Source of the DNA: an uncultured Candidatus Saccharibacteria bacterium
GTDB taxonomy: Bacteria; Patescibacteriota; Minisyncoccia; Phycocordibacterales; DATDWN01
NCBI GenBank assembly: GCA_964576615.1
Contig: CAZNUU010000003.1
Location: 6,523-70,522 of the forward strand
Reading direction: 5' to 3'
Length of the DNA stretch: 64,000 bases
The translations under genes and the position numbers were made by a program. This document shows, one piece after another, positions 26,493-52,637 of this stretch. The notes under the pieces are model-generated. The model worked only from the letters and a program-made list of their open reading frames with translations, made no database searches and was not told where the DNA came from. The stretch's first letter is position 1, and each line of letters opens with the position of its first letter.

Positions 26493-27095
26493 CTACTTCT
26501 TCGCAGAACGTTTAGGCGCCGGCTTTCTCGGACGAAGTTGCGACTTCACGTAAGAGGCATACTTGTCCTGAAAGATGGCTACGTGAAAGTGGGGCGGACT
26601 TTTCTCTCGCGTCGCCTCAATCACCTTTAGCCCCTCGAGGTAAAGCAGGGTCTTTTCAAATTGCAGCACACACGACGGGTCGGCTGGAATTCGAAAATCG
26701 ACTGCAATGCCTGTCGGATGAACCGACTTGGGCGAAGCGTTTCGGGGTTGCTCTATCTTTGATCTCGTCGCACTAGTCACAACCAGATCACAGATCGGCG
26801 CAATTTCTTGAGCAAATCGCTCCACGAAAAGTTTCGCGACCGGCCGAACAAACGGATGAACGGCACCCTCGACCCGGTAACGACTGTTACCAGGAAGTGC
26901 CACCAGTCTCCCCTGCCTTATGAAACGATCCACATCAGCAGGAGTCTCTAGCCGGGTGAAACCCTCTCGGGTTGCATCTTTGTCCATCCGATCCACGGAC
27001 GCCTTCGAGCCTTTTAGGCTCGGTTTTTGTGCCTGTGCAGACATTGTGAAGCACAAGCACAGTGCAAGTGCACACAAAAGTTTCTGCATATTCAC
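26493..27095 (-). CDS. Secreted peptidase M15-like (VanY/YcbK-type zinc D,D-peptidase fold) (GC-rich cassette)
   Basis: Signal peptide; S-x-HPTGIAVD, E-x-x-H and H-F-H motifs; TTGACT-N17-TAAAAT, AGAGGTGA RBS. Confidence 0.45.
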   Translation of the reverse strand: MNMQKLLCALALCLCFTMSAQAQKPSLKGSKASVDRMDKDATREGFTRLETPADVDRFIRQGRLVALPGNSRYRVEGAVHPFVRPVAKLFVERFAQEIAPICDLVVTSATRSKIEQPRNASPKSVHPTGIAVDFRIPADPSCVLQFEKTLLYLEGLKVIEATREKSPPHFHVAIFQDKYASYVKSQLRPRKPAPKRSAKK

Positions 27096-27222: not shown

Positions 27223-27441
27223 TTACGCTCTTTCAGGGCCAAAGGTCACTTCGACGCTGTGGTTAGTGTTGATCTCCAGGAGAAATTCTGTGAGATCTTC
27301 GGGTGAAATGCCCATTGCCCGAGCGAAGTTGTCCAGATCCCGGCACGGCTCCACCAGGATCTTTGGATTTCGACGGACGAGTTCCTCGAGGAACGCGCGG
27401 CATTGCGCAGTTACCTTGATGGTTCTGATCGCGTGTGTCAT
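27223..27441 (-). CDS. Hypothetical small protein (GC-rich cassette)
   Basis: TTGACA-N16-TATTCT, GGTGGAGG 5 nt from second ATG. Confidence 0.5.
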   Translation of the reverse strand: MTHAIRTIKVTAQCRAFLEELVRRNPKILVEPCRDLDNFARAMGISPEDLTEFLLEINTNHSVEVTFGPERA

Positions 27442-27650
27442 GAAAGCCTCCACCGATGAGAATACTTTAAAACCTTAGAATGTCAACAAAACCGCCTTTC
27501 GGCGGCTTTGTTAGATTCTTTAAGAAATTTCAATTTTTGATGCAATGCTAGGCGGACGAGGAAAATAATGTGAGCCTTATCGAGTATAAGGTGAACATTA
27601 TTTTACCGAAGTCCAACAACGCAGTGCGCTAAAATTGGAATTTCTTCTGT

Positions 27651-28844
27651 TTAGGCGATGATCTTGGTGACCACCCCTGCACCGACTGTCTTGCCCCCCT
27701 CCCTAATAGCAAATCTAGTCTTATCTTCTAGAGCAACTGGAGCCACAAGTTTAACTTTGAAAGTAACTGTATCTCCTGGCATAACCATTTCTACTCCTTC
27801 GTTAAGTGTTACATCTCCAGTTACGTCTGTTGTTCGAACGTAGAACTGTGGCTTGTAACCAGTGAAAAATGGTGTGTGTCTTCCACCTTCCTCTTTCTTA
27901 AGGATGTAAACTTCGGCCATAAATTCTGTATGAGGTGTCACTGATTTTGGCTTTGCAAGAACCTGACCTCGGGAAATGTCCTCTTTCTTAGCACCTCGGA
28001 GAAGAATTCCGGCATTGTCTCCGGCCTGACCTTGGTTAAGAGATTTGTTAAACATTTCAATACCAGTAACTGTGTATTTTTGAGTATCTCGTAGACCAAC
28101 ACACTCGATTTCCTCGCCAACATTTACGACTCCTCTTTCAATTCTTCCAGTAACTACAGTACCTCTTCCTTCAATTGAGAAGATGTCTTCAACTGGCATT
28201 AGAAACGGTTTATCTAACTCTCGAGTTGGAAGTGGGAATGCATCTAGAGCATTTGCAAGCTCAAGTATTTTCTTTGCCCACTCATCATTGTTGTCCTTCG
28301 ACTCTAGAGCCTTTAGACCTGAACCTCTTATAACTGCTGTGTTAGCACCATCGAAGCCTTGTTTTGTAAGGAGTTCTCGAACTTCTTCCTCAACCAAATC
28401 AATAAGCTCTTTGTCTGGTACCATGTCGCATTTGTTTAGAAACACGATCATTTGTGGCACACCAACTTGTTTTGCCAAAAGTACGTGTTCTCGTGTTTGT
28501 GGCATAACACCGTCAGTTGCAGCAACAACTAGAATAGCGCCGTCCATCTGGGCAGCACCAGTAATCATGTTCTTAATAAAGTCCGCGTGACCAGGCGCAT
28601 CTACGTGTGCATAGTGTCTACTTGGTGTGGAATACTCCGAGTGGTGAAGCGAGATGGTAATACCTCTTGCTTTTTCTTCCGGAGCTTTGTCGATTTGGTC
28701 AATACCTTCGACACGAGCTTCATAGCCACCGCCTTGTCGTCCTAGAACGTTTAGGATGGAAGCTGTTAATGTTGTCTTTCCATGGTCAACGTGACCGATG
28801 GTGCCCACATTCATGTGAGGCTTACTGCGATCAAACTCTGCCAT
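27651..28844 (-). CDS. tuf: Elongation factor Tu
   Basis: [22 protein letters not shown] motifs. Confidence 0.97.
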
Positions 28845-29260: not shown

Positions 29261-29752
29261 CTACGACTGCAGACGGGGCAGGGGCGCTGTCTCGACGAGT
29301 ACCTGGCGAAGATTCGCGAGATACTTTTCGAACTTGCCCGCAAGCATCATCTCCTGCATTGAGGAGCTGATGTACTTGCCCTCGCGAGCGAGCCCGGCGA
29401 TCGCGTCGAGTCGTTCACCGACATCCGCCATCGAGGCGCCCAGCTTGCGCGCCTGGATCAGCTGGGGCACGAAGTAATTGGAAAGTGATCCCTCGACCAT
29501 CTCGGGATGATCGGTCTTCACGAGCCAGATCTGCCCATCGAGGTTTGCGAGGACCGCCGCCGGACTGGAATCCCGGATCGCCCGGACTTCCTTCCCGAGC
29601 TGCGCGTTCTTTCGCTCGAGTCCCCGCATCTCCTCACCCGCCTTGGCGATCGACACCGATAGCCGGTACGTCACGTATCCGGCGCCCGACGCCACCGCAA
29701 GTGCGAGAGATGCCACCACCGCGAGAACCACGAAACTTCTTCTGCTCACCAT
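29261..29752 (-). CDS. Signal-anchored coiled-coil protein (GC-rich cassette)
   Basis: TTGACA-N17-TTTAAT, AGGAGG 6 nt from ATG; terminator hairpin 29226-29253. Confidence 0.55.
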   Translation of the reverse strand: MVSRRSFVVLAVVASLALAVASGAGYVTYRLSVSIAKAGEEMRGLERKNAQLGKEVRAIRDSSPAAVLANLDGQIWLVKTDHPEMVEGSLSNYFVPQLIQARKLGASMADVGERLDAIAGLAREGKYISSSMQEMMLAGKFEKYLANLRQVLVETAPLPRLQS

Positions 29753-29808: not shown

Positions 29809-30126
29809 CTAGATACTTTGGAGCATGAGATCCTCCTTTAAGGCCTGTCTTTCTTCTATCACCAGGGAATCAAAAGTTGGAATTCTTGCCTTTAAAAAAC
29901 TCAAAACTTCGTGAGGAGTAGTTTTGTCCTGACCAAGTAAATTATCCAACTCGTCCTGTTCCCTCTCAGATAAAATATCTAGAGATCTTGTAAGAAGAGC
30001 TTGGTATAAAATTTTACCGATTCTTTCCGCAACCTCTCTTTGTTTTATGGGAGGAAGACCTTCTAGGTTCCACTCCTTAATTATTTCTTTTAAAAGAATC
30101 ATCTTAGATTTTTTATTAGTATCCAA
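29809..30126 (-). CDS. Small acidic protein, paralog of 39385..39684
   Basis: Shared C-terminal motif ...SFL+.+IP.FD.LV.E...LK. Confidence 0.5.
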   Translation of the reverse strand: MDTNKKSKMILLKEIIKEWNLEGLPPIKQREVAERIGKILYQALLTRSLDILSEREQDELDNLLGQDKTTPHEVLSFLKARIPTFDSLVIEERQALKEDLMLQSI

Positions 30127-31352
30127 GCTCTCTCAAAGACTTGCTGTTGTACTGTCTTCGCAAAAAGAAACCCTGCCTTGTATTTTTTATCCAATTTCAC
30201 ATCCGGACCTTTCTTGGTCATTGTTCCCCTTGCAATTTCTACACCGTCACAAGTAATTTTAATTACCACTGTCTCCCCATCCATTTCTTTAATAATTTCT
30301 CCCTTGTGGCCTTCAAACTCAATAGGAATTGTTTCACTTTGTGGTAAAGAAACGACACCTTCCTCATTACCTGCCTTAAACGACTCGGGTTGGTTAATTA
30401 TTGAGGTCGAAACTACTTCTGGTTCTGGAGCTGCCGGCACGGCCTCGTTTACTCTAAGACCACTAAAAGTGCTCGGGGATAGATTCTCAGGTGAGAACAA
30501 ATTAAAATCATGATTTAGTGCGACAGACAAATCGTCTGCACTCCCCTCATCTAGATTGCCCCAAGTCTTTTCAGCTTTAATAATAATTCTTTCAGATCTT
30601 GGTGAACTTCTGACCAGTTCCCGTCTTATCATTTCAATTTCACCCAGATCAAATTCTGGCCCAGGGCCCAGACTCTCTCTCTTATCTCTCCTAGTTCTGT
30701 AATATTCATCCCTAGCTGCTATTAATTCACTTGGCTCATCTTTTTGAGGCATGCTGCGAACACCACCTAGGGATTCCATCAATCTGCGAAAAACATCCTT
30801 GTTTTTTTTAGCATTCTCTAAGTAGGGACCTAGTAATTTAATGTAATTTTCTCTAGCTTTTATTAACTTTCTATCTAGATCGATGGAAGGCTCAGTTTCC
30901 GTGTTCCTGGCAACTACTCCGGGCCTAATCCCGAGAAGTGAGAGTACATCCCTCGTCTCAAGGGGCGTAATCAAAGTGGAGTTGGAGATTATTTTAACTA
31001 CCTCCTCCATAGAAGCCCTGTCTGTAATATCCCAAATTAAATTCTTTACATTTGCTCGGTCGACAGAAATCTTTTTCAAATAATCTAGAACAGGGCCTGG
31101 AGCGGAAAAAGTTGCATCTTTTTTTTCTTTCTGTTCTTTGGGTGGAAGCGGTGCTGGCTCGGAGAATTGTTTTTCAATTTTTTTATCTTGCTCCGTTTCA
31201 AGCGGAGGAAGTTCGGTTGGTTTTGCCATTGCCTCAAACCCAATTATTTTTATTGGGACTCTAGTCTCGTCTAAACCAACGGAGTCAACGACTTCGTCAA
31301 AGGCTGGAGGGTGAATACTTACTTCACTTTCGATTGGAGAAGGACTATTCAT
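30099..31352 (-). CDS. Hypothetical protein (417 aa), local similarity to 36946..39357
   Basis: PSELIAARDEYYRTRR vs PQELVDARSEYFKAKR. Confidence 0.5.
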   Translation of the reverse strand: MNSPSPIESEVSIHPPAFDEVVDSVGLDETRVPIKIIGFEAMAKPTELPPLETEQDKKIEKQFSEPAPLPPKEQKEKKDATFSAPGPVLDYLKKISVDRANVKNLIWDITDRASMEEVVKIISNSTLITPLETRDVLSLLGIRPGVVARNTETEPSIDLDRKLIKARENYIKLLGPYLENAKKNKDVFRRLMESLGGVRSMPQKDEPSELIAARDEYYRTRRDKRESLGPGPEFDLGEIEMIRRELVRSSPRSERIIIKAEKTWGNLDEGSADDLSVALNHDFNLFSPENLSPSTFSGLRVNEAVPAAPEPEVVSTSIINQPESFKAGNEEGVVSLPQSETIPIEFEGHKGEIIKEMDGETVVIKITCDGVEIARGTMTKKGPDVKLDKKYKAGFLFAKTVQQQVFERAWILIKNLR

Positions 31353-31414
31353 CCCCCAATTTTAACTTTTTTGTTTTCTCGGAGCAATTTAAAAAGCGGA
31401 AAAACTGTGTTTTT

Positions 31415-31582
31415 AAAAGCCTTTCGCAGGAGCTTAGAAAATAAACGCAAATTAGATAGCTGAAGGCATTGTTTGAGCGTAGCGAGTTTGCCGAGAAGCT
31501 AAGTCTCATTTGCGCATTATTTTCTTGAGCGACGAGAAGTTCGCTAGGCCAGCAGGCCTAGATAGATTGCTTTTAAAAATAC
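31415..31582 (+). repeat. Copy 1 of ~165-bp repeat (inverted copy at 43800-43968, ~90% identity)
   Basis: Manual alignment, e.g. AAAAGCCTTTCGCAGGAGCTTAGAAAATAAA...CTCATTTGCGCATTATTTTCTTGAGCGACGAGAAGTTCGCTAG shared. Confidence 0.6.
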
Positions 31583-31593
31583 GTTTTTGGAGC

Positions 31594-33735
31594 TTACTTT
31601 CTACTCTCTATTATGGATTTCTCCACGTTAGCTGGCACCACCTCATAGTGATCAAACTCCATCATGACCGATCCGCGACCTTGAGTAAGAGAGCGAATTT
31701 CAGTTGTATATCCAAACATTTCGGAGAGTGGAACTTTAGCATGAATTACTCTTAGCATCCCCCTCTCATCCATTCCTTCTATTTGACCGCGCTTGCCTGA
31801 CAGTGAACCAGTGATATCCCCCATGAACTGCTCTGGCATCACAGCTTCAACTTTCATAATTGGCTCGAGAATAACTGGCTTAGCCCTTTTAGCGGCGTCC
31901 TGGAAAGCTTGGGAGGCAGCGATCTTGTAGGCAATTTCAGATGAGTCCACATCGTGGTAAGAGCCGTAGGTTAAAACAGAGGAAATATTTACCATTGGAT
32001 AGCCTGCGACAATGCCTCGACCCATCGCTTCGTGTATACCTTTTTCTACTGCAGGGATAAATTCCTGAGGTATAACCCCCCCTTTAATTTCATCAATGAA
32101 TTCAAAATCCTCATGGCGATGAACATTTTTGGGAATTTTTGCACCTTCTTTGAGTGCTTCCATAGGTTTAATCGTAATTTTTACATGGCCATATTGACCC
32201 TTACCTCCAGTCTGTTTAATATATTTGTTTTCAGCTTCTGCTGTACCCAAAATTGTTTCCTTGTAAGCAACCTGGGGTTTGCCGACATTTACCTCCACTC
32301 CGAATTCTCTTTTCATTCGATCAACCATAATTTCTAGGTGAAGCTCTCCCATTCCAGAAATAATGGACTCGCCCGTATCAGTGTTTGAGGAAATAACAAA
32401 AGTTGGATCTTCATCTGAAAGTTTTTTGAGAGCCATACCCATTTTTTCCTGATCTGCTTTTGTTTTTGGTTCAACCCGAAGAGACACCACTGGTGCTACG
32501 AATTTAATTGGATCTAGGACAATTGGATTGTTTTCATCACAAAGAGTGTGAGATGTTTTTGCGTTTTTTAATCCAACCGCTGCAGCAATTTCACCCGCAA
32601 AAACTTTTTTAACTTCTTCTCGTTTGTCTGCCTGCAGTCTAACAATTCTTCCCAGTCTTTCCTTCTCGCCGGTAGTTGAGTTGTAAATATATGTGCCAGA
32701 TTCAATTGTGCCGGAGTAAACTCGAAAGAAAGTAAGCTGACCTACGAAAGGATCGTTTTGAAGTTTGAAGGCTAGAGCAGAAAATGGCTCTGTGTCAGAT
32801 GCTTTTCGATATATTTCATCCCCAGTTTTTGGATCAATGCCATGAACGGGAGGAATATCTAGAGGTGAAGGCAGGTAATCAACCACCCCATCAAGCACAA
32901 GTTGAACACCTTTATTTTTTAAAGCAGAACCCGTAAAGACAGGCACAATCTTTACGGCAAGGGTTGCTTTTCTTAGAGTTGCCTTTAATTCATCTAATGT
33001 AGGTTCCTTGCCTTCTAGATAAGCTGCCATCTGCGCATCATCTTGTTCAACTATCTTTTCGATCAATTCCCCACGATATTTTTTAGCTTCTTCCAGATAT
33101 TCTGCAGGAATTTCAGCTTCTTTTATCTGATTTCCCATGTTGCCTTCAAAGTAATAGGCCTTCATTTTGAGAAGGTCGATAACTCCTTCGTGTTTATCTT
33201 CTAGACCAATCGGAATCTGCATCCTGACAGCATTTTTTGTAAGTCTATCTAAAATTGATTGGTATGATCTCTCAAATGATGCGCCAGTTCGGTCGAGTTT
33301 GTTGATAAAGCAAATTCGAGGCACATTGCCATCATCCGCATAGCGCCAGTTGGTTTCTGACTGTGGTTCAACCCCAGCCACACCATCAAAAACCACCACC
33401 GCACCGTCGAGGACTCGAAGTGACCTCTTCACTTCCGCAGTAAAATCAATGTGACCTGGAGTATCAATAATATTGAATCTGTACTCTGGTTTAGCACCCT
33501 TCTCTTTATATGTCGGATTCCAAAAACAAGTAATCGCAGCCGCAGTAATAGTAATGCCTCGCTCTCTTTCTTGCTCCATCCAATCCGTAACAGTCTCACC
33601 CTCGTGCACTTCACCTATCTTGTGAGTCATGCCTGTATAGTAAAGTACTCGCTCGGATGTGGTTGTTTTACCCGCATCAATGTGAGCGATGATTCCGAAA
33701 TTTCTAACTTTTTCTAACGAGTAATCTCTGTTCAT
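31594..33735 (-). CDS. fusA: Elongation factor G
   Basis: [17 protein letters not shown] and EF-G domains. Confidence 0.97.
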
Positions 33736-33837
33736 TTTTTAAAACAAAAAGGCCTTGCGGCAGATAAAACTATATACTAAAAGCTTTTTTGTTGCAATTA
33801 GATGGTCGTAGTGATAGAAATTATCTAGGAGGTACTG

Positions 33838-34092
33838 ATGTTTCACCCAGATGAAGATGTCAACAGTGCAATTGTCCGTCTCATCGATGCCCTGACAAGC
33901 TGGGAACGCTCAACAGGCCGGGAATCATTTCTGGTTTTAGTTCCAGTTGAATCAGAGGAGAGGGTCGTCGTGGTTGACTCTGGCAGACTCATGGATCTGG
34001 AGTCTCTCACAGATGAACTGATCGCTGAACGTGTCTTGCAGGCTCTGGTCTGCCATGACAATCCAGAGGTTCATCGTTTTATCGATGGCTAG
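33838..34092 (+). CDS. Hypothetical acidic small protein (GC-rich cassette)
   Basis: TTGCAA-N17-TAGAAA, AGGAGG 5 nt from ATG; hairpin CTAACAGAGG..CCTTTGTTAG downstream. Confidence 0.5.
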   Translation: MFHPDEDVNSAIVRLIDALTSWERSTGRESFLVLVPVESEERVVVVDSGRLMDLESLTDELIAERVLQALVCHDNPEVHRFIDG

Positions 34093-34125
34093 GGCTCGAC
34101 CTAACAGAGGCCGGGCCTTTGTTAG

Positions 34126-36900
34126 TTATTTTTTATACTTCTCGAGTATTGTTGCTTCTATTTCCGCTCGATTGCCCCCATAAGTTTCGTAAGAAAGTTG
34201 TTTTAATTTCTCAGCTGTGGCAGCATCCCCTTTTGGTGGGAATGGTTCTCTTATATTAAAAGCTTTGCTAGGTATTCCATTAACTAACATTTTTACATAA
34301 GCATTTAGATTCTCGATGTTCATAATATCTTTGGCAGTAAATGTCGGAGAAAATTGTTTTTCCAAATATTCTGCATCCTCGGCACTCACCCGGAAAGAGA
34401 CAATAGAACCAACGTTACCAAAAACAGAATCTTTTATCTTTTCTTCCAATTGAGCGATGAATTGATGAGCAACGGTTAGAGAAAGTTTATATTTCCTAGC
34501 TTCGGATAATATAGAGGATATCGAGTCTGTAGTAATATTTTGAAATTCGTCCATATAAAGATAGAACGCCGGAAAATCTTTACCTACAAGATCGACCCGT
34601 GACAGAGAAGCCATTAGAATTTTACCAACTAGAATAAGACCGATTAGGTTTGCATTTATAGCCCCCAAACGACCCTTGGAAAGGTTAACCAAAAGGATTT
34701 TCCGACCATCCATTATTTCCCGGAAGTTAAAAGAGGATTTTTCCTGCGCAACTATTGGCCGCATAATGTCGTTAGCCAAGAACACATCAAATTTACTAGT
34801 TATGTAAGGGACGATATTGGCTAGTGCGGCATCACCTCCAGCTTTCTCTGCGACCTCCTTCCAAAACTGCACAACTACTGGATTTTTACATTTGGAAATC
34901 TTCAGGTCACGATAAGCTTTATTCGACATCACTCGCGAAACATCTAGGAGGGTATGCCCTGTTTCCGGATCTTCGATTACCAGCATGGTGGCATTTCTAA
35001 AATACTGTTCAAACATTGGACCCATCGATTCCGGTACCGCACCATAAAGTTTTTGGAAGATAGAAAATAGTTCATTTACAACGAAAGTTTTTTGCTCGGG
35101 ATATTTTGGATCATACTCCAGCATGTTTAAGGCCATAGGCCTTTCGGTGTAAGCAGGATCAAAGTAAATAACGTCTTTGTAACGGCTCTCCGGAATATTC
35201 GACAAAATATCAAAAATATCTGTACCATGAGGATCTATAAAACAACAACCATTCCCCCGGTTTATATCCTGGATTATCGAATTTTTTAAAAATACAGTTT
35301 TACCAGTTCCAGTTTGCCCTACCACATACATATGTCTTAAGCGATCTTGGTCCTGAATATATACTTTAGTTTCGGCATTGCGGTAATTATTTACACCCAA
35401 GTAAATACCACTCTCTGACATACCGCTAGGCGCCGGAGCAGAAGTGGCGAGTGATTGTTTAAGCTGAGGCGCCGCCTTGCCAATATGAGTTGCAGGGAAA
35501 TGTAGGCAAGTTGTCATTTCTTCTATGTTCAAAATCATTTGATTTTTTTCGTCAAATGTTCGTAAGGAAAAATTCTCCAAAAAATCTCGCAGGTTACCCT
35601 TCTCCATTTTTTGCCACTCTATTCTATTGCCATGGCCATTCTCAAACTGATTGAAGGCCGACTCAATGTCATTAAGGATCGTCTTAGCTTTTTCTTCAGT
35701 ACTAGAGGAAGCCGCAGCTCTAATGTTTACAGATATAAATGAGCTTTTGATCTTTCTTATAAACTGCTCGATCGCTTTTTGGTCATTGTTTTGGGCTCTT
35801 TTTTCTTTTGCCTCATTTTCCTTTTCTAGTTTCTCTGCACTTTTAAAAATACTTGTTAATTCCTTAAACACACTTGAACCCAAGGAGCGATCGATGTCAG
35901 AGACAGCATCAGAGACTTTTTCTCCCTTCTTTATATTTTCAATTGCATGCTCTGCAGACTTAAATAGATCATCCCTCCTGCCTCCAACTATGAGTTGAAT
36001 TGCTGCACCCTCCCCATCTTTATCTATCTTAGAGAAACTATTTAAAATAACTCCCAGCGGATCAATATTAAATTCTTCGTAAGGTTTTAGTGGATATAAA
36101 AATTGCTTAGAGAGTTTCGCACTTCCAGCGACAGAGACACCTTGTTCGTTAAAAATATTGTAGTCATCTTTGTGTTCCTTTATGAGTGAGCCAGGGAAAA
36201 CCGCTAGAATCTGTTTTTCAAACAATTCTTTTCTTTTAGTAGGAACCGAAACATAAAAAACAAACTGGTCACTGCCATTGGCACAAGCAATTTCCACCGA
36301 AAACCACATCGGATCGTTTTTATCCGAAGAAATAGAGAGCATACCAGAATAAAACTGTTCCATCCCGGAGATTAGCTCTTTTATGTGTTTATTTTTGTCT
36401 TCCTCCGATGCTTCTGGCAGACTTATTTCAAATAAAGTCATGTGCAGCGGCTTCCACAGAAAATCTTTTTCCTTCAAATCGGCTATAGGATAGCCGGATG
36501 CAATAAACTGGACCAGAAAACGGTGAAAATCATCAAATATATGTGGGTCATTCATTTTTTCAATGACACTTAAAACATTTTTTATGCCTTTTTCCTGCAT
36601 TAGGCTGAGAAGTTCGCCCATTTTTACATCGTGTGATTCGGGAGAAAGCTCTAGAGTAATCGCCCCAGCTTCCTTATCGTTCATGACATATTCTTTCTCC
36701 AAAACTTCTTCGTGAGGCAGGCCAGCATAACTTTTAACAACTTCCTTGGCGGCTTGATTAGTAGAAGTTTCTATCCCTCTTTCGCGTAAAATCGTTTCGT
36801 AGTTTATGACTGATTCACGGAGTTTGTTAATCTCTTGTTCCGGACTTGCGACTTTTGGCTGAAATTCCAGACTTGGGTTCATACAGCAATTATATAACAA
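34126..36900 (-). CDS. VirD4/TraG/FtsK-like P-loop ATPase (putative DNA/protein translocase) with ~500-aa N-terminal domain of unknown function
   Basis: Walker A VVGQTGTGKT...IDPHGT, Walker B FYLYMDEF, ARKYKLSLTVAHQ motif. Confidence 0.55.
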   Translation of the reverse strand: MLYNCCMNPSLEFQPKVASPEQEINKLRESVINYETILRERGIETSTNQAAKEVVKSYAGLPHEEVLEKEYVMNDKEAGAITLELSPESHDVKMGELLSLMQEKGIKNVLSVIEKMNDPHIFDDFHRFLVQFIASGYPIADLKEKDFLWKPLHMTLFEISLPEASEEDKNKHIKELISGMEQFYSGMLSISSDKNDPMWFSVEIACANGSDQFVFYVSVPTKRKELFEKQILAVFPGSLIKEHKDDYNIFNEQGVSVAGSAKLSKQFLYPLKPYEEFNIDPLGVILNSFSKIDKDGEGAAIQLIVGGRRDDLFKSAEHAIENIKKGEKVSDAVSDIDRSLGSSVFKELTSIFKSAEKLEKENEAKEKRAQNNDQKAIEQFIRKIKSSFISVNIRAAASSSTEEKAKTILNDIESAFNQFENGHGNRIEWQKMEKGNLRDFLENFSLRTFDEKNQMILNIEEMTTCLHFPATHIGKAAPQLKQSLATSAPAPSGMSESGIYLGVNNYRNAETKVYIQDQDRLRHMYVVGQTGTGKTVFLKNSIIQDINRGNGCCFIDPHGTDIFDILSNIPESRYKDVIYFDPAYTERPMALNMLEYDPKYPEQKTFVVNELFSIFQKLYGAVPESMGPMFEQYFRNATMLVIEDPETGHTLLDVSRVMSNKAYRDLKISKCKNPVVVQFWKEVAEKAGGDAALANIVPYITSKFDVFLANDIMRPIVAQEKSSFNFREIMDGRKILLVNLSKGRLGAINANLIGLILVGKILMASLSRVDLVGKDFPAFYLYMDEFQNITTDSISSILSEARKYKLSLTVAHQFIAQLEEKIKDSVFGNVGSIVSFRVSAEDAEYLEKQFSPTFTAKDIMNIENLNAYVKMLVNGIPSKAFNIREPFPPKGDAATAEKLKQLSYETYGGNRAEIEATILEKYKK

Positions 36901-36901
36901 A

Positions 36902-36927
36902 AAAGCGCTGATGAAAGCGCTTTTTTG
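36902..36927. terminator. Bidirectional hairpin AAAAAGCGCT-gatgaa-AGCGCTTTTTT
   Basis: Between 803-aa gene and ATPase gene; TATAAT follows. Confidence 0.45.
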
Positions 36928-36945
36928 TTATATCTTTTTGTTTAG

Positions 36946-39357
36946 TTAAATTGTGCCTCTCAATACTCGTTCAACAATGGAGCTATTCATTACTTTTCCG
37001 GATTGAACTAGCTCTTGTCCGTGGGCCGAAAGCCAATCAAATATTACTTTGTTATTTTTGACAATACTTGCCACTTGATCTGGACTTAGACCTCTAGCAT
37101 TTAAGAGAGCTTGAGAAATAAGAGATGGATCTTCGACTTTACCAGCAATGTCTATTGCATCACCAATATGGAGAATGTTTGCATCGCCACTAGTAAAGCC
37201 AAGATCTTTAAGTTCAGTTGCGCTCATCTTGTCAAAGATATCTTTGAAAGAATCGATGACATGAGTTCTCGCCCCCTCGTCTAAACCGTTAAGAACACTG
37301 TTAGAGTCAAGGTTACGCTCTATTATTTTCCATGTATTTTCCCCTGCAACTACTCTGTGTAGCGAATGTACATTTGGAAGTACCCCAGTCTCTGGTAAGC
37401 GAGTTGAATCGAGTGGAGGCTTTGGAGTATTTGGGATATTTATGTCCCCTGATCTTGAGGGCTGAACTCTGTGGAAAAGTTTATTGCCAATGAGCCACCC
37501 GGTTGCTCCTCCCGCCGCTGCTGCTATTATTTTACGCAGCATTTTATTTATTCTTTCTCGGTCAACTTCAGATTCAATTACTTCGTTTCTGGAATTTGTT
37601 TCTCGATTTAATTTATCCGCAATTAGAACAGCTACTCCTGGACCAGAGGCATCAATGCCTTCGGCCACTTGTCTTGCTTGAAGGATATCATCCATTCTGA
37701 TTATTGCTTCAGCAATCGCACCCGTGCTATCTCCTGCAGAAAGGAGATCCCTCATTGCAACTCCTCGCTCAACCTGAAGCATTCTTAACCTAGAAGCTTC
37801 TTTTCTTATATCTTCCGGATTGATATTTGATACTGCTCTATCAACTGCATCCGGATTTACGGATCTGCCTATTTGTTTAGCTATTGCTGATACTAAACCT
37901 TTATGCCCAATAAGTTTTGAATACCTCTCCAGACCTGCTTCTGTACCTGTATATGTTCCAACAGACCCCCACACTGCTCTACCTCCCATTACTAGAGGAA
38001 CAGCCACACCTGTCATAGCAGAAGCTACACCTGCACCCCCAAGCAGAGCACCGGTTACCAGTCTGAATCTGCCCATCTGTCGCCACTTTGTCTTCAATTT
38101 CTCAAGTCTGTTTCTTTCAATACCTTCCGTTGAAATTTCATCAACATTTCTCTGTTCTTCCCGAATCAAGTCCAAAGCTCTCCTGGCTAAAAATACACGA
38201 AGCATCTTAGGTTGTTCTTGCCCACCTTCCATTCGAGCTCTTAGGGCTGCTTCCTCCATGCTCAATTCCCGTATCCTATGACGATCGAGTTGAACTTGAT
38301 ATCTATCTCGAAACCCCTCTAGCTCTTTCTTACCTTCTTCACCTCCAAAATCCATTTCTTCTTCACCAAATGACATTAAGCGTTTAAGGAACCCCCCAGC
38401 TTTGCCTCTAATTACATTGCCACGTAACCTTTTGGCCTTGAAATATTCACTTCTTGCATCAACTAACTCCTGAGGATTGAAAATTTCCGGAGTCCTAGTA
38501 GTATCTGGTCCTTCTGGCGGTTGAGGTGGTTCTTCTTGACCTCCTCCGCCACCACCTCCACCTCCGTCACCTCCACCATCAACTGGCCCTTCTCCTCCAT
38601 CTTCTTTATCCTTCCCACTCATTTCTTTTATTTTGCCTTCAACCTCCTTGGCTAAGCGCTCGATAAGATCATGGGAAGCATCTCTCGTATTTGTGTAAGG
38701 CTCACCATTTTTACCTACTGCAAAATCTTTAAGCAAATCAGGGCGATTGACCCAGTCCCCTGGATAATCAGCTGAACTAGTAGAGCCCTTACCGAAGACA
38801 TGCCAGTAAACATCTTCGTGCTCAACATTGCCTTGCCTAGCTTTGTTTAATAAATCTAGAATTCTTTTTTGTTCCGCAATTTGCCTCATTCTCTCTGCAT
38901 TTCTTTCCTGTCGCTCTCTTTCTTTTGCCGCATTTTTCTCTACTACCTCTTCAGCACGAATGTCTTGCTCAGTCTCTTTTGCTAGGTACTCAACAAGATC
39001 ATGGGCAGCGTCCCTGGTAGATTGGTATGCTTCACCGTTTTTGCCCACAGAAAACATTTTCGCCAAGTCAGGTCTCTCAGAAGTAAAATTCCTGTATGCT
39101 TCTTCATACTCAACATTTCCCTGTCTTACTTTATCTAAATAGTTAATCCTCTCTCTTAACTGTTCCAGGCTTAATGTAGGCCTTTCTTCAGCTCCTAAGT
39201 TAAGTTCTTCTCTGGTTTTGGCTGGACCTCTTTTGATTTCGTACTCAATTCCATCGTTGGCTGGAACAATTTTGGCCTTTGGGTTTGGTTTTGGAGAATC
39301 ATCTAAAACTACCAACGGTTCCTCATTTGGTCCGGCATCTGGCTTGAATCTTTCCAT
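36946..39357 (-). CDS. Large hypothetical membrane-associated protein: coiled coil, ~70-aa internal tandem duplication, Gly run, TM region, C-terminal LysM-like segment
   Basis: YLDKVRQGNVEYEEAY...GKNGEAYQSTRDAAHDLVEYLAKE repeated as LLNKARQGNVEHEDVY...GKNGEPYTNTRDASHDLIERLAKE; GGGDGGGGGGGGG. Confidence 0.5.
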   Translation of the reverse strand: MERFKPDAGPNEEPLVVLDDSPKPNPKAKIVPANDGIEYEIKRGPAKTREELNLGAEERPTLSLEQLRERINYLDKVRQGNVEYEEAYRNFTSERPDLAKMFSVGKNGEAYQSTRDAAHDLVEYLAKETEQDIRAEEVVEKNAAKERERQERNAERMRQIAEQKRILDLLNKARQGNVEHEDVYWHVFGKGSTSSADYPGDWVNRPDLLKDFAVGKNGEPYTNTRDASHDLIERLAKEVEGKIKEMSGKDKEDGGEGPVDGGGDGGGGGGGGGQEEPPQPPEGPDTTRTPEIFNPQELVDARSEYFKAKRLRGNVIRGKAGGFLKRLMSFGEEEMDFGGEEGKKELEGFRDRYQVQLDRHRIRELSMEEAALRARMEGGQEQPKMLRVFLARRALDLIREEQRNVDEISTEGIERNRLEKLKTKWRQMGRFRLVTGALLGGAGVASAMTGVAVPLVMGGRAVWGSVGTYTGTEAGLERYSKLIGHKGLVSAIAKQIGRSVNPDAVDRAVSNINPEDIRKEASRLRMLQVERGVAMRDLLSAGDSTGAIAEAIIRMDDILQARQVAEGIDASGPGVAVLIADKLNRETNSRNEVIESEVDRERINKMLRKIIAAAAGGATGWLIGNKLFHRVQPSRSGDINIPNTPKPPLDSTRLPETGVLPNVHSLHRVVAGENTWKIIERNLDSNSVLNGLDEGARTHVIDSFKDIFDKMSATELKDLGFTSGDANILHIGDAIDIAGKVEDPSLISQALLNARGLSPDQVASIVKNNKVIFDWLSAHGQELVQSGKVMNSSIVERVLRGTI

Positions 39358-39384
39358 GGATGTTTTTTATATTTAGATAATAAT

Positions 39385-39684
39385 TTATGCCGCAGGATGA
39401 GCTAGTTCAAGCATTTCCTTCTTGAGCCCCGCAACCGTTTCCGCAACTAAAACATCAAAATTTGGAATCTTATCTCTTAGAAATGAAACTAGGTCAGCAT
39501 CGGAATCTAGAACCTTATCTAACTCCTTTTTGTCCTCGTCCGAAAGATAAGAGAGAGCAGCTAAACTTATCCTACTATGTAAAACTTCTTCCATCTGACC
39601 TATCATTGCGTCTCTTTGTTCCTTTGGCATTTGATCCAGTCCTAATTCTTGCACCAAATTAACATTTAACAAATCTGTAAGCAT
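39385..39684 (-). CDS. Small acidic protein, paralog of 29809..30126
   Basis: Alignable over ~85 aa. Confidence 0.5.
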   Translation of the reverse strand: MLTDLLNVNLVQELGLDQMPKEQRDAMIGQMEEVLHSRISLAALSYLSDEDKKELDKVLDSDADLVSFLRDKIPNFDVLVAETVAGLKKEMLELAHPAA

Positions 39685-39760
39685 ATTATTATTGTTATGA
39701 ATATACCTGAAGTATAAAGCTAGATTAAATCCTGGTAAAGGGAATTGTGGATTATCGATT

Positions 39761-39964
39761 TTATGAAGATTTATTTTTTTCTTTTAGGACTTTTACTTCG
39801 TTTTCAAGATCTTCCAGTCTTTCATGATCCGACTTGTGATGAGTCAGAGCTTTTTGAATAAAAGGCCAAATAAATATACCAATCACAACATCGAAAACTA
39901 CCATTAAAAAAACCTCAAATTCCCAGTGAGCTGGATCTTTTAGTAAGTCAAAAAATGTTTCCAT
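39761..39964 (-). CDS. Small membrane protein (1 TM plus charged coiled-coil tail)
   Basis: 67-aa low-GC ORF heading the locus. Confidence 0.4.
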   Translation of the reverse strand: METFFDLLKDPAHWEFEVFLMVVFDVVIGIFIWPFIQKALTHHKSDHERLEDLENEVKVLKEKNKSS

Positions 39965-40000: not shown

Positions 40001-40240
40001 ATGCAAAGTGTACGGGAGCTCGTGCCCGATTTGGAAAAATGCGATAAGAACCCGGACCACCCCGGCGCGTTTTACCTGCCCCAGTACAAAACGCTTATAG
40101 AAATCGCGACGGGCCAACCAGTTACGGTGATTACTGCTGACCTGTTCGGCAAGAACCCCGAGTGCGTTTACACTCCGGAGTTGGCCGAGTGGCACCACAT
40201 TTCCAAATTCGAGCTCCCCAGCTCGACTAACACTGCTTAG
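40001..40240 (+). CDS. Hypothetical small protein (GC-rich cassette)
   Basis: GGAGG 4 nt from ATG. Confidence 0.5.
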   Translation: MQSVRELVPDLEKCDKNPDHPGAFYLPQYKTLIEIATGQPVTVITADLFGKNPECVYTPELAEWHHISKFELPSSTNTA

Positions 40241-40292
40241 TCGAGCTTTGTTAGTTAAGTAGAGAGCCCTGGACGAATCCAGGGCTCGAAGA

Positions 40293-40649
40293 CTACGAGG
40301 TTTTGATGCGGTAAATCCCAAAAACTCCCTCACCTCGGTAATCACACGTGAAATCAGCGTGCGTTCCAGAGAGCGCGTCGAGAGCTTCGTGCAACTGTCT
40401 CTCGAAGACTCTCACCGCATCGTTACCTATTTGGACGGAGTGGAAATGAACTGAGTAGATCACTGCCTCAGAGCACCCACACCGGATGAAGTTTAAAACC
40501 TGGCCTAGGGTATGCATCCAATCCTTTATGTTAGAGGTTGGATGGGCACCCGGCAAAACTACAGGTTGACCAACCGGAATCATGGTAACGTCATCACCTT
40601 GAACGATGAACTTCTGACCCTTCGCAGCGACCGGATTTTCATTGCGCAT
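40293..40649 (-). CDS. Hypothetical protein (GC-rich cassette), convergent with 40001..40240
   Basis: TTGACT-N16-TAAGGT; shared hairpin GAGCCCTGGA-cgaa-TCCAGGGCTC 40266-40289. Confidence 0.5.
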   Translation of the reverse strand: MRNENPVAAKGQKFIVQGDDVTMIPVGQPVVLPGAHPTSNIKDWMHTLGQVLNFIRCGCSEAVIYSVHFHSVQIGNDAVRVFERQLHEALDALSGTHADFTCDYRGEGVFGIYRIKTS

Positions 40650-40943: not shown

Positions 40944-41414
40944 CTACCAGGCGAAATGAGCGAAAGCTTTATTTGCTTCAGCCATTTTATGAGTATCCTC
41001 TCTCTTCTTTACCGCCTTACCTTCGTTCTTGGATGCCAAGATAATTTCGTCAGCTAGCTTGGATGCCATTGGTTTACCTTTTGCACTACGAGCAGCTTCG
41101 ATAATCCATTTCATAGAAAGTGCAGAGCGTCTTTCTGGTCTAACTTCGCGAGGAATCTGGTAGTTTGCTCCTCCCACTCGTCTAGATCTTACTTCTGTAA
41201 GAGGCCCTGTATTTTTTAGTGCAGCATCTAAAATTTCTAGAGGATTCTCAACTTTTGTTTTATCTTTTACCTCTTCTAGAGCAGAGTATACGATTTTTCT
41301 GGCGGTCTCCTTTTGACCTCGAAGCATTAGATAGTTAATAAACTTACTGATTTTTTCAGAATCGTATTTATAATCTTTCTTTACAATATTTCTGTTAGTA
41401 ACTTTTCTTCGCAT
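40944..41414 (-). CDS. rpsG: 30S ribosomal protein S7
   Basis: Sequence family. Confidence 0.92.
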   Translation of the reverse strand: MRRKVTNRNIVKKDYKYDSEKISKFINYLMLRGQKETARKIVYSALEEVKDKTKVENPLEILDAALKNTGPLTEVRSRRVGGANYQIPREVRPERRSALSMKWIIEAARSAKGKPMASKLADEIILASKNEGKAVKKREDTHKMAEANKAFAHFAW

Positions 41415-41463: not shown

Positions 41464-41874
41464 TTATTTCTTAGCTCTTTTTGCACCATAACGTGATCGT
41501 CCCTTCTTTCTGTTTTCAACTCCAGTTGCGTCAAGAACACCTCGTACAATTGTGTATCTGACCCCGACATCTTTTACCTTTCCGCCTCGTAGTAATACCA
41601 CGGAGTGCTCCTGCAAATTATGGCCCATGCCTGGAATGTAGGCTGTAACTTCTTGGCCGTTTGTAAGCCTGACTCTGGCAATCTTTCGAATAGCCGAGTT
41701 AGGTTTCTTGGGAGTCTTTGTGGTTACTTTGGTGCACACACCTCTTTTAAAGGGAGACGGATAAAAAACTGGTCGGTTAGTCAAGGTATTGAAACCACGC
41801 ATAAGAGCCACAGCTTTTGGCTTGGCTTTGAAGATTTTTCTCTTGCGTCTGACCAACTGATTTATAGTAGACAT
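41464..41874 (-). CDS. rpsL: 30S ribosomal protein S12
   Basis: Sequence family. Confidence 0.95.
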
Positions 41875-42216: not shown

Positions 42217-42774
42217 TCAAGCGGCCAGGAGCAAGCTCCAGGCAAGAGCATTCTCATCCTCCCTGCGTTGACGAGTGAGGGTCGAGAAGTCGTCGAGCAG
42301 ACTCTGTTTCCAGCCCATGAGCTTCACCAGAAGCATCCCGAGGGCCTCGTCGCCAATTTCCGGAAGGCCCGAGAAGGAAACGAGAATCTTGAACCTGCCA
42401 CCGAGCTCAGGAACGTCTGCGTACAAGATGAACGCCCCGCCATATGCCCAACGGCTACGCTCGCGGAACTGCCAGGAGCTGACGACTCTGTGGTCAAGCG
42501 CATGTTCCACCATGAGAGTACTGGCTTTGTGTCCCGATACGATTGAGCGGCGACCGAAGGCGTCCTCCTCCGCAGTGCCAATGTTGGACTTGAAGAATCT
42601 CTGCCAACCCTGAACTCCCTGAGTGGAATCAACCGCATAGAAGAGTTGGAGAACTCCGCCGGTCGCACCATTCGCCTCTTCGCGAAGGACCTCAAGTACT
42701 TTCCTGAGAGCCTCCAGCGCAACCGAAGAGATATTCCCCCACTCACGCTGTGAAAGACGCAGAACTACTGCCAT
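42217..42774 (-). CDS. Hypothetical protein, 185 aa (GC-rich cassette)
   Basis: TTGACT-N16-TAGTCT, GAGGTGA RBS; hairpin CACCCAGC..GCTGGGTG downstream. Confidence 0.55.
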   Translation of the reverse strand: MAVVLRLSQREWGNISSVALEALRKVLEVLREEANGATGGVLQLFYAVDSTQGVQGWQRFFKSNIGTAEEDAFGRRSIVSGHKASTLMVEHALDHRVVSSWQFRERSRWAYGGAFILYADVPELGGRFKILVSFSGLPEIGDEALGMLLVKLMGWKQSLLDDFSTLTRQRREDENALAWSLLLAA

Positions 42775-43542: not shown

Positions 43543-43785
43543 ATGGCAAAACCTTGCCCAGTTACAAAAAAATCATCTCGCGTAGGCGGTGGCTATTCAA
43601 ACCGAACTCGTGCCACACAGTTTAATCCTACCGGAATGGTTCGAAAGTACCCTAATCTTCAGAAAAAGAAGATCTATATTCCTGAACTCAAAAAATCCAT
43701 CTCTCTAACTCTATCTACTAAAGCGATCAAAACTATTCAAAAGAATGGGGCTTTTAGAACACTCAAAGCTGCTGGAGTAATATAA
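43543..43785 (+). CDS. rpmB: 50S ribosomal protein L28
   Basis: MAKPCPVTKK...NPTGMVRKYPNLQ family. Confidence 0.8.
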   Translation: MAKPCPVTKKSSRVGGGYSNRTRATQFNPTGMVRKYPNLQKKKIYIPELKKSISLTLSTKAIKTIQKNGAFRTLKAAGVI

Positions 43786-43799
43786 CCGTTCGTGATTTC

Positions 43800-43968
43800 T
43801 TTCAAAAAGCAATCTGTCTAGCAAAGCTTTACTAGCGAACTTCTCGTCGCTCAAGAAAATAATGCGCAAATGAGATTGTGCTTTTCGACAAACTCGCTAC
43901 GCTCAAACAATGCCTTCAGCTCTCTCATTTGCTTTTATTTTCTAAGCTCCTGCGAAAGGCTTTTTGAA
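43800..43968 (-). repeat. Copy 2 (inverted) of ~165-bp repeat
   Basis: Reverse complement aligns with 31415-31582. Confidence 0.6.
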
Positions 43969-43983
43969 AGAAATCACTCACTC

Positions 43984-44220
43984 TTACAAATTTGAACGCC
44001 GGCTCGAATGAGCCGGCGTTACGAACTTCTCTGGATACATTTGAATCACTTCCCCAATCAAGGCCAGCATGAGTGAGCCGATGCAAAACATCGCCACCCA
44101 AAACTTGATCTCGATCGGTAGCCCTTTGCCTCTCAGGAGGGCCAAGAGGGTGATTCCGAAAATGATCCAGCAAGCGATTTCCATGCCCATCGCTCGAAAG
44201 AAAATCTCGTTTGCGTCCAT
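43984..44220 (-). CDS. Small membrane protein, 2 TM (GC-rich cassette)
   Basis: TTGACA(44260-44265)-N16-TACTGT, AGGAGG 5 nt from ATG 44220; terminator AACGCCGGCTC..GAGCCGGCGTT. Confidence 0.55.
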   Translation of the reverse strand: MDANEIFFRAMGMEIACWIIFGITLLALLRGKGLPIEIKFWVAMFCIGSLMLALIGEVIQMYPEKFVTPAHSSRRSNL

Positions 44221-45781: not shown

Positions 45782-45796
45782 TTTTCTAATAAAACC

Positions 45797-46378: not shown

Positions 46379-46430
46379 AGATACTTGACTCTCTAATAAT
46401 TCATGTTACTATCATAGCTAGGAGGTTGGA

Positions 46431-52629: not shown

Positions 52630-52637
52630 ATGAGAAT

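Follow-up and report, generated by a model that had tools for sequence, protein, structure and literature searches.

We read the interval that separates rpsG, fusA and tuf in this DNA, part of a Paceibacteria (Zambryskibacteria-like) chromosome, as a patchwork produced by rearrangement, in which three native units, each conserved independently of the others, have come to adjoin by accident and one of which encodes an ATPase that would act as a T4SS coupling motor; we hold this reading with slightly more belief than doubt. The window analysed is the whole stretch of 64 kb; coordinates are positions within it, and the listed native ORFs are all on the minus strand. In the ORF list, rpsL lies at 41464-41874 and rpsG at 40944-41414, and apart from them and from each other stand fusA (EF-G, 31594-33735; 90% identical to the EF-G of locus L028) and tuf (EF-Tu, 27651-28844). 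The distance from rpsG to fusA is 7.2 kb, matching the gap of about 7 kb in the str operon described in the original prediction, and every ORF that it named is present where it had been placed, on the minus strand. Two inverted copies of a MITE-like palindromic repeat of ~200 nt (copy A, 31394-31595; copy B, 43783-43986) flank the segment that runs from fusA to rpsL together with an M50 peptidase gene.

The T4CP-like ATPase gene (34126-36900, minus strand) encodes 924 aa counted from the TTG at 36900; translation probably starts at the ATG at 36882, which gives 918 aa and agrees with P0001 and with a conserved Met7. The first ~150 residues form a helical extension specific to Patescibacteria; next comes, at ~aa 150-470, the alpha/beta domain DUF8128, whose fold is VirB4-NTD-like, and ~aa 495-924 make up a nucleotide-binding domain that resembles TraD/VirD4 and appears to carry an all-alpha insert. 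Three minus-strand motifs are invariant in the family alignment A1, namely the Walker A motif GQTGTGKT (35296-35319), residues D784 and E785 of the Walker B motif FYLYMDEFQN (34537-34566) and ARKYKLSLTVAHQ (34462-34500), the RK...HQ motif typical of coupling proteins, which aligns with the corresponding segment of TrwB, the only sequence relative of the ATPase with a solved structure. The protein had been called a P-loop ATPase of the VirD4/TraG/FtsK type, with Pfam searches proposed as the check, and this assignment is borne out by the motifs and by TraG-D_C (26.1 bits against a cut-off of 22), TrwB_AAD_bind (23.9 against 20.5) and DUF87, all of which score above their cut-offs. Among NCBIfam models every score fell far under the family cut-off; the best was SXT_TraD (E 6.5e-16, 57.9 bits against 366), with CD1115 at 36.6 bits against 250 and VirB4_CagE (TIGR00929) at E 1.6e-3 and 16.7 bits against 643, the last over aa 779-874. 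By HMM, the ATPase is placed in the TraD/VirD4/HerA group.

In its HerA-FtsK P-loop motor, in the Walker A/B and RK..HQ motifs and in these model matches the ATPase resembles the type IV coupling proteins VirD4, TrwB, TraD and DotL. Unlike them it has no N-terminal transmembrane anchor, hydropathy showing no hydrophobic segment before aa 740, and has instead ~470 residues of soluble N-terminal domains that include the VirB4-NTD-like fold; it also differs in genetic association, its gene having neither a relaxase gene nor T4SS genes beside it. The model of the N-domain (pLDDT 79.6) is soluble, with helical and alpha/beta parts, and its 12 best Foldseek matches are all TrwK. The protein thus has a domain of VirB4-NTD-like fold followed by a RecA-like motor, an order shared with VirB4/TrwK, which are likewise soluble and of ~900 aa. 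The motor sequence, however, is nearer to TraD/VirD4 than to VirB4/TrwK, and the Pfam VirB4 models AAA_10 and CagE_TrbE_VirB give no match in the ATPase. A further difference is that, according to PMC12102498, the VirB4 genes of Patescibacteria belong to T4SS clusters located near dnaA. In the full-length AlphaFold model, built with 12 sequences, the motor domain is poor, with pLDDT mostly below 50; helices are predicted at aa 602-718, where TrwB_AAD_bind also matches and where pLDDT is <50, and it is the HMM matches and secondary structure that suggest an all-alpha domain and a hexamer. Against PDB sequences the N-terminal helical extension gave no significant match.

The same overall architecture is found in a putative coupling protein, a 913-aa DUF87 protein of 65-kb Bacillus subtilis plasmids (WP_213380696.1, NZ_OX419568.1), which aligns with aa 199-902 of the ATPase at 23% identity (E 4e-32) over the DUF8128-like N-domain and the motor and lacks the Patescibacteria-specific N-terminal helical extension of ~150 aa. 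Its gene lies directly upstream of a replication-relaxation gene, in a Tcp-like conjugation operon with an AAA_10 VirB4 of its own. A phage origin of the region was considered and rejected: PHROG matches were zero, and in the phage tblastn similarity was confined to the motor, at 20-26% identity to the ATPase.

The ATPase family has more than 2,678 matches, the best 120 of which are almost all 59-68% identical over 95-100% of the length and all carry PF26449 (DUF8128), a label taken from precomputed annotation. Representatives of at least 589 GTDB species carry the gene, with identities of 52-69%, and the ATPase is core content of the Paceibacteria, vertically inherited. The original prediction had named ubiquitous core content with a known function as an outcome that would tell against it; the ubiquity is found, in at least 589 species, and the known function is not. 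At 82 loci elsewhere the neighbours are housekeeping genes or unknowns, and the gene is often found where the spc ribosomal operon ends, flanked by map and ndk: map lies upstream of it at 22 loci and ndk downstream at 29, with both present at 19. EF-G or EF-Tu adjoins it at a single one of these loci and is absent beside it at the other 81. In the window secY-adk-map-ndk is kept, with no ATPase gene among its members; here the gene has been relocated from the common map/ndk position into the rpsG-fusA gap.

No VirB4, relaxase or VirB3/VirB6/VirB8-type component was recognised in the 64-kb window, and phmmer searches with two queries only, the VirB4-like and relaxase-like proteins of the Bacillus plasmid, found no relatives within 10 kb of the ATPase at the 82 loci. 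The claim that VirB4, relaxase and pilus partners are all missing thus stands for the first two in the 64 kb and fails for the pilus: the type IV pilus genes PilC (56275-57492) and PilB (57494-59248), together with ComEC (46770-48338), are 10-20 kb off, and RecJ also lies 10-20 kb from the ATPase. Two recurrent neighbours of the ATPase, c9 and c16, were tried as kin of p803, p417 or DUF5663 and dropped at an hhalign probability of <=0.2%; neither is encoded in the window.

The second unit pairs p99 (39385-39684, minus strand), a small acidic helical protein of pI 4.4, with p803 (36946-39357, minus strand). In Pfam, p99 covers positions 1-83 of the 84 in the DUF5663 model (PF18908), with E 1.1e-3 and a score of 19.9 bits that falls short of the 23.7 cut-off; orthologues of p99, at 56-66% identity, carry the precomputed PF18908 label and always lie directly upstream of a p803 homologue. 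The DUF5663 family has no function in Pfam and no mention in the literature searched. Aligned with 10 homologues, p803 is a lineage-specific modular protein that opens with two repeats of ~65 aa, continues through a Gly/acidic linker and a conserved YLKAKRLRGN motif, and closes with a Pro-rich linker and a conserved C-terminal domain. It had been described as an 803-aa membrane protein; because hydropathy shows one clear hydrophobic segment (aa 433-459) and one weaker (~aa 612-630), it is at most bitopic or two-pass, and the description holds to that extent. Pfam has no match in 10 members of the family, and PDB profiles yielded no solved relative, only a weak match to a single TALE-like repeat. 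A LysM domain suspected by eye in the C-terminus was discarded, no Pfam match being found among the 10 family members. The pair recurs in five other contexts (L086, L087, L088, L090 and L091-93). In the window the p803 stop and the start of the ATPase gene have between them a perfect 18-bp palindrome with A/T tracts (36892-36933), a hairpin resembling in its sequence a bidirectional intrinsic terminator that would part the two genes. Beyond p99 lies p67 (39761-39964, minus strand), an orphan singleton of native composition with one TM helix.

The third unit comprises p417 (30099-31352, minus strand), a lineage-specific soluble protein with 70 representatives and a conserved C-terminal domain of ~80 aa that also terminates many proteins of 800-1300 aa, and p105 (29809-30102, with the ORF reaching 30126; minus strand), a second protein of the DUF5663 type. 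The start of p105 is probably the ATG at 30102, giving 97 aa; this ATG overlaps the p417 stop (ATGA), and p105 would therefore be translationally coupled to p417. The small acidic proteins are paralogous, as had been proposed, with p99 and p105 related at E 5e-10 and p105 having a pI of 5.2; p105 is divergent and missed by Pfam, and p99 alone links it to DUF5663. At L094 a p417 homologue upstream of tuf is followed by a p105 orthologue of 53% identity, and at L028 a p417 homologue lies between the ATPase gene and tuf. On this sequence evidence p417-p105 is a separate conserved pair upstream of tuf and no partial copy of p99-p803. The local similarity of p417 to p803 on which the idea of a duplication had leaned comes down to a single motif of ~25 residues (BLAST, 21 aa, E ~0.05), with no demonstrable kinship: hhalign gives a probability of 1.2%, and the p417-family HMM matches the 25-aa motif in the p803 of the window alone and in none of its relatives. 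A shared domain as a sign of duplication was rejected on these grounds. Two mosaic proteins, P0194 and P0199, weakly connect p417 and p803.

The favoured reading has as its first unit the anchor-less core ATPase, which belongs within the HerA-FtsK superfamily to the VirB4/T4CP branch; DUF5663(p99)-p803, a small acidic helical protein with a fast-evolving membrane-associated one, as the second; and translationally coupled p417-DUF5663(p105), upstream of tuf in this lineage, as the third, their neighbouring here being an accident of rearrangement. The ATPase is probably a soluble coupling or translocation motor for a chromosomal patescibacterial T4SS, and an exapted role independent of secretion is a serious rival. 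As such a motor it would hexamerise, serve substrate coupling and translocation in a T4SS of the monoderm type, the type reported for Patescibacteria (PMC12102498), that is encoded elsewhere, and dock to the inner-membrane complex by its VirB4-like N-domain, not by transmembrane helices. The window shows no T4SS gene, nor do the 10 kb around the ATPase at the 82 loci, and this link to a T4SS is therefore one of homology only.

The rival takes the ATPase for an exapted housekeeping motor, a soluble DNA (or protein) translocase that works in a core process without serving a T4SS, for instance in chromosome segregation or resolution at division, or in pulling in DNA by way of the type IV pilus and ComEC. 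We consider this possible, if tentative. Exaptation of coupling-protein homologues was raised by the authors of PMC12102498, who counted 5,713 VirD4-like homologues, of which just 148 are near virB4, across 2,918 genomes of Patescibacteria, and reported that in Ca. Southlakia epibionticum the T4SS is essential and the coupling-protein homologue is not. The same source notes, however, that even in ordinary conjugative systems the gene for the coupling protein often lies apart from virB4. That the family so often lies where the spc operon ends, and that it is very highly conserved over many genera, fits a housekeeping role at least as well; the place of the gene inside the str operon here and its missing TM anchor argue in the same direction. 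The nearness of ComEC, RecJ and PilB/PilC would do so as well, but the other ATPase loci do not keep ComEC and pilus genes close by. Favouring T4SS service, the VirB4-like N-domain suggests docking to membrane parts of a T4SS, and the one non-patescibacterial homologue of the same architecture that was examined belongs to a conjugation cluster, with a relaxase-like gene as its neighbour.

A bolder version, which strikes us as distinctly unlikely, would make this near-universal soluble hybrid of VirB4 and coupling protein, with its lineage-specific, His/Asp-rich helical head, the missing cytoplasmic motor of an essential epibiont process and no accessory of conjugation or a T4SS. An example would be taking in or handling nucleic acid or protein from the host, with the DUF5663 proteins serving as adaptors to large variable proteins of cargo or envelope type.

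The original prediction itself, a horizontally acquired accessory module centred on a translocase, partly duplicated around fusA and devoted to DNA uptake or export or to surface-protein export, is largely refuted, and we rate it very unlikely. The genes are indeed clustered here and the canonical str operon lacks them, p99 is a paralogue of p105, and the ATPase stands beside DUF5663-p803 at L088 and beside a p417 homologue at L028. However, the ATPase, p803, p99, p417, p105 and p67 are native in composition and without Shine-Dalgarno sites; the four of them between rpsG and fusA had been taken for low-GC genes, a description that does not survive comparison, since the GC (0.31-0.43) and GC3 (0.24-0.35) of the module genes are the same as in rpsG, fusA and secY. 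The ATPase is core content and usually located elsewhere; L088 is the only other context in which it lies near DUF5663-p803, being absent at L086 and L087 and, at L090 and L091-93, from the side that is sequenced, and at 80 of the 82 loci no relative of DUF5663, p803 or p417 is found near it. The candidate terminator between p803 and the ATPase and the HMM-HMM comparison of p417 with p803, which finds them unrelated, also count against a single module.

VirE1/VirE2 and IcmS/IcmW-DotL offer precedents for a small acidic protein that partners T4SS cargo or a coupling protein, and by that analogy the DUF5663 proteins could be acidic secretion chaperones or adaptors, with p803 and p417 as cargo that the ATPase delivers to a T4SS. 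We find this highly improbable. Two independent conserved pairs do each join a small acidic helical protein (pI 4.4 and 5.2) to a large variable one, and both are no more than a few kb from the ATPase in the window, as is one at L088 and one at L028. However, the pairs rarely adjoin the ATPase, no sequence or structural likeness to known chaperones was found, the hydrophobic segments of p803 fit an envelope protein inserted by Sec/YidC, and the argument is one of analogy only. A HerA-like or MADS-type motor of an anti-phage system deserves next to no credence, since the PADLOC matches that prompt it are weak (mad8, E 1.4e-9, 35.9 bits; HerA models, 6e-5 to 2.5e-3, <=20 bits), the TraD, VirD4 and TrwK matches are stronger, PADLOC matched neither effectors nor partner genes of such systems, and the ATPase is a single-copy core gene in housekeeping synteny and not in a variable island.

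Orphan coupling-protein homologues were already known from Patescibacteria (Quinonero-Coronel et al. 2025, PMC12102498), where they were found by HMM and are widespread, chromosomal and mostly unlinked to virB4; the ATPase is like them by description and may belong to that set. The parts of that report drawn on here give no account of domain architecture, loss of the TM anchor or neighbourhoods. The present locus reveals no new secretion or uptake machine. Rearrangement broke up the str operon of this lineage, and a core patescibacterial ATPase can occupy very different housekeeping contexts. What the analysis adds is that such VirD4-like orphan ATPases, at least those of the Paceibacteria, would be anchor-less, with a VirB4-NTD-like fold and an architecture in common with putative coupling proteins of Bacillus conjugative plasmids. 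From this architecture follows the hypothesis that the N-domain docks to inner-membrane parts of the T4SS, and the phyletic pattern of the ATPase could separate a T4SS role from an exapted one.

Within the region a foreign look is restricted to GC-rich mini-ORFs, all of them orphans. The two GC-rich cassettes described at 33838-34092 and 40001-40649 are present and bear Shine-Dalgarno sites. The first is p84 (33838-34092, plus strand), a foreign-looking insert whose ribosome-binding site reads AGGAGG and which has a terminator to itself; the second, equally foreign-looking, holds the convergent p79 (40001-40240, plus strand) and p118 (40293-40649, minus strand), each with a Shine-Dalgarno site and both served by one terminator hairpin. 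Another such insert, p163 (29261-29752, minus strand; GC 0.62), sits between p105 and tuf and has an AAGGAGG site and a signal-anchor-like N-terminus. CTTTGTTAG was tried as a signal marking cassette ends, with 3 sites against 0.64 expected, all at the ends of GC-rich ORFs, and was rejected when alignment showed it to be the T-tract of native-style terminators. These GC-rich orphan mini-genes, bearing Shine-Dalgarno sites among native genes that have none, may perhaps be the region's more unusual feature.

We found every ORF named in the original prediction to be present in the str region, on the minus strand and at the position it had assigned. The genes rpsL (41464-41874) and rpsG (40944-41414) are followed by three ORFs named by their length in amino acids, p67 (39761-39964), p99 (39385-39684) and p803 (36946-39357), and by the coupling-protein-like ATPase (34126-36900), which precedes fusA (31594-33735). 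Two further ORFs, p417 (30099-31352) and p105 (29809-30126 as first called), lie between fusA and tuf (27651-28844), and the str operon is therefore broken at two places. The ATG at 36882 is the most likely start of the ATPase, which would give a product of 918 aa; an identical database protein (P0001) has this length, and Met-7 is conserved throughout the family. For p105, the most likely start is the ATG at 30102, which overlaps the stop of p417 as ATGA, so that the two genes are probably translationally coupled.

The VirD4/TraG/FtsK-type P-loop proposed for the ATPase was borne out by HMM searches, in which TraG-D_C, DUF87 and TrwB_AAD_bind all scored above the Pfam cut-offs. The best NCBIfam matches were to TraD/VirD4 models (SXT_TraD, E 6.5e-16; TOL TraD, E 6.5e-10; CD1115 VirD4-like, E 2.4e-9), with VirB4_CagE reaching just E 1.6e-3, every one of these scores being far under its family cut-off. 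The sole solved sequence relative is TrwB. Invariant in the family alignment are the Walker A motif GQTGTGKT, the Walker B motif FYLYMDEFQN and ARKYKLSLTVAHQ, and hydropathy analysis found no N-terminal hydrophobic segment. The ATPase belongs to the VirB4/coupling-protein branch as a soluble protein of two domains, and its catalytic motifs are all intact. It belongs to a large catalogued family (PF26449; "DUF87 domain-containing protein", also [quoted passage not shown]). Matches number more than 2,678, and the best 120 are 59-68% identical, nearly all almost full-length, and carry PF26449 (DUF8128) N-terminally. In a pattern scan that took a single genome for each GTDB species, the family appeared in at least 589 species, with record titles that include Paceibacterota, Parcubacteria, Zambryskibacteria, Taylorbacteria, Nomurabacteria and Campbellbacteria; the gene is conserved as core content of Paceibacteria.

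A model of ATPase residues 1-495, built from 57 sequences, was good (pLDDT 79.6, pTM 0.70). The top 12 Foldseek matches to this model were all TrwK chains (E 3e-5 to 6e-4, with low TM-scores of 0.30-0.35), from which we conclude that DUF8128 adopts the VirB4 N-terminal-domain fold; the motor joined to it is nearer in sequence to the coupling proteins. The first ∼150 residues (36451-36900) form a Patescibacteria-specific helical extension, for which a search found no solved sequence relative; its invariant His/Asp cluster, SPExHD...NPHLxDDFHRF, could be a metal or ligand site. A tblastn search against plasmids also found a 913-aa DUF87 protein on 65-kb plasmids of Bacillus subtilis that aligns to ATPase residues 199-902 (23% identity, E 4e-32); the alignment spans N-domain and motor alike, and the plasmid protein lacks the helical extension. 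Its gene lies immediately 5' of a replication-relaxation protein gene, in an operon whose other products include TcpE-family proteins, conjugal-transfer proteins and a distinct AAA_10 VirB4. In monoderm plasmids, the architecture of the ATPase is therefore found in the coupling-protein position.

ORFs were called and clustered in 82 independent ATPase loci to survey the gene neighborhood. The first four genes upstream include methionine aminopeptidase in 22 loci, and the first four downstream include nucleoside diphosphate kinase in 29. Both flanks occur in 19, giving the order secY-adk-map-[ATPase]-ndk with which the spc ribosomal operon ends; yqeY and rmuC lie downstream in 9. In the window, secY (14238-15506), adk, map (12848-13615) and ndk (12213-12797), followed by a beta-CASP gene, are intact, with no ATPase in the ∼50-nt map-ndk gap. 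The ATPase is therefore a core gene that was relocated in the lineage of the window. EF-G or EF-Tu is near the ATPase in only one of the 82 loci, a Zambryskibacteria MAG (L028) whose EF-G is 90% identical to that of the window. There fusA and the ATPase are separated by a toxin-antitoxin pair, an IS200/IS605-type transposase and a 221-aa ORF (together at 3228-4919 of that contig), and beyond the ATPase come a 108-aa ORF, then a p417 homologue, then tuf. A pair of helical proteins of ∼420 and ∼96 aa, with no assigned role, lies directly beside the ATPase, on one side or the other, in 14 of the 82 loci (L003, L008, L010, L034, L040, L044, L047, L053 and others), a recurrence that points to a functional link; the window lacks this pair, which is unrelated to p803, p417 or DUF5663, the small acidic protein family of p99 and p105. 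The prediction that VirB4 and relaxase partners are missing held, with no relatives of the Bacillus plasmid VirB4-like or relaxase-like proteins found in the window or, by phmmer with those two queries, within 10 kb of the ATPase in the 82 loci.

The genes flanking fusA had been read as a module and its partial copy, and instead they form two distinct conserved pairs. Only ten p803 homologues are detectable, none with a Pfam domain, and a search for a solved relative of p803 found none. Their alignment reveals two repeats at the N terminus, a linker of low complexity, a YLKAKRLRGN motif and a C-terminal domain, the last two conserved, and p803 has one clear and one weak hydrophobic segment. 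Near the C terminus (37000-37250, about residues 700-780), a conserved segment, LSPDQVASIVKNN...WL, bears a weak likeness to one TALE repeat (profile E 2.7e-4, a value that repeats in the targets have probably inflated); a LysM-like motif seen by eye upstream of it was undetected by Pfam. In every readable contig (L086, L087, L088, L090 and L091-L093) a DUF5663 gene, its product 56-66% identical to p99, lies directly upstream of the p803 homologue, with the ATPase nearby in L088 only and divergently oriented. In L086 and L087, UvrD and RsmA come after the pair. In L091-L093 the pair is preceded by PGK, RecJ, RNase H, ComEC, SOD and an MBL-fold gene, and this synteny is shared by the window at 44858-52629; compared with those genomes, the window has L28, an M50 peptidase, rpsL and rpsG intervening between its MBL-fold gene and its p99-p803 pair. 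Between p803 and the ATPase lies a perfect 18-bp hairpin (36892-36933) bordered by tracts of A and T.

The second pair has ∼70 p417 representatives in 1.8 billion clusters, and the ∼80-aa C-terminal domain of p417 also terminates many proteins of 800-1300 aa. Of the local similarity reported between p417 and p803, a 25-residue motif exists but the families are unrelated (profile-profile probability 1.2%). The paralogy of p105 and p99 stood (E 5e-10), p105 being a divergent DUF5663 member. The p417-DUF5663-tuf arrangement recurs in a metagenome contig (L094) with a DUF5663 protein 53% identical to p105; there a different 104-aa orphan (2357-2671) lies between the DUF5663 gene and tuf. Conserved elsewhere, these are therefore two separate pairs of a large variable protein and a DUF5663 protein, in opposite gene order.

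The supposedly low-GC genes are not unusual for this genome, with GC of 0.31-0.43 and GC3 of 0.24-0.35, compared with GC3 of 0.24-0.40 in housekeeping genes such as rpsG, fusA, tuf, secY and adk; both sets lack a Shine-Dalgarno sequence. The outliers are seven GC-rich orphan ORFs (GC 0.50-0.62, GC3 0.48-0.77) in intergenic gaps among core translation genes. They include the cassettes already singled out as GC-rich, at 40293-40649 (minus strand) and 40001-40240 (plus strand) between rpsG and p67 and at 33838-34092 (plus strand) between the ATPase and fusA, together with 29261-29752 between p105 and tuf, and 26493-27095, 27223-27453 and 42217-42774. Canonical AGGAGG-type Shine-Dalgarno sites precede five of the seven and none of the nearby native genes. 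Five are on record in a collection of 15 billion proteins, all as singletons, and 27223-27453 and 26493-27095 have no exact-sequence entry there. PHROG and PADLOC searches gave no matches, and the sole Pfam match is DUF5715 in a 200-aa ORF. By composition, the putative module genes are native and the small cassettes foreign; the GC-rich ORFs look horizontally acquired. In the relatives L028 and L094 the corresponding str-operon gaps carry other cargo, and such junctions look like hot spots for insertion in this lineage.

The coherent translocase module of the original prediction is thus not real, and we consider it probable that the locus is a patchwork of separate units. In a 2025 survey (PMC12102498), Patescibacteria are described as having a chromosomal monoderm-type T4SS, usually without a relaxase, and 5,713 VirD4-like homologues in 2,918 genomes, only 148 of them near virB4; the ATPase is very probably counted among these orphans. 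The new elements are descriptive: DUF8128 has a VirB4-NTD-like fold, the ATPase lacks an anchor and recurs between map and ndk, and DUF5663 proteins occur in two gene pairs. No mention of DUF5663 or DUF8128 was found in the literature searched. Our tentative reading, a little short of an even chance, is that the ATPase would assemble as a hexameric motor and pass substrates to the chromosomal T4SS, docking through its VirB4-like N-domain rather than through transmembrane helices. The main rival, which we rate as somewhat less likely, is exaptation for a core function outside the T4SS, for example the handling of DNA during division or uptake, and housekeeping synteny and high conservation suit it equally well; the survey reports that in Ca. 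Southlakia epibionticum the T4SS is essential and the VirD4-like homologue is not, and its authors leave exaptation open. By analogy, the DUF5663 pairs might be chaperone-cargo pairs, and a role of the ATPase in defense is unlikely.

A ∼200-nt palindromic repeat with no Rfam match occurs in two inverted copies (31394-31595 and 43783-43986), ∼90% identical over 160 nt, each with ∼27-nt terminal inverted repeats and folding as a long hairpin (z -5.7 and -4.9). Between the copies lie the 12 kb that run from fusA as far as the M50 peptidase gene, and this MITE-like element could have mediated rearrangement of the str region. Some 10-20 kb from the locus, a DNA-uptake/pilus neighborhood (46770-59248) holds ComEC (46770-48338), RecJ (49415-51121), RNase H, a 429-aa ORF without Pfam matches (53551-54840), a PilC-like T2SSF protein (56275-57492) and a PilB-like T2SSE protein (57494-59248). 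The window also encodes a tmRNA (7361-7744) and a tRNA-Ile (3493-3567) with the anticodon TAT (UAU), which is uncommon in bacteria.
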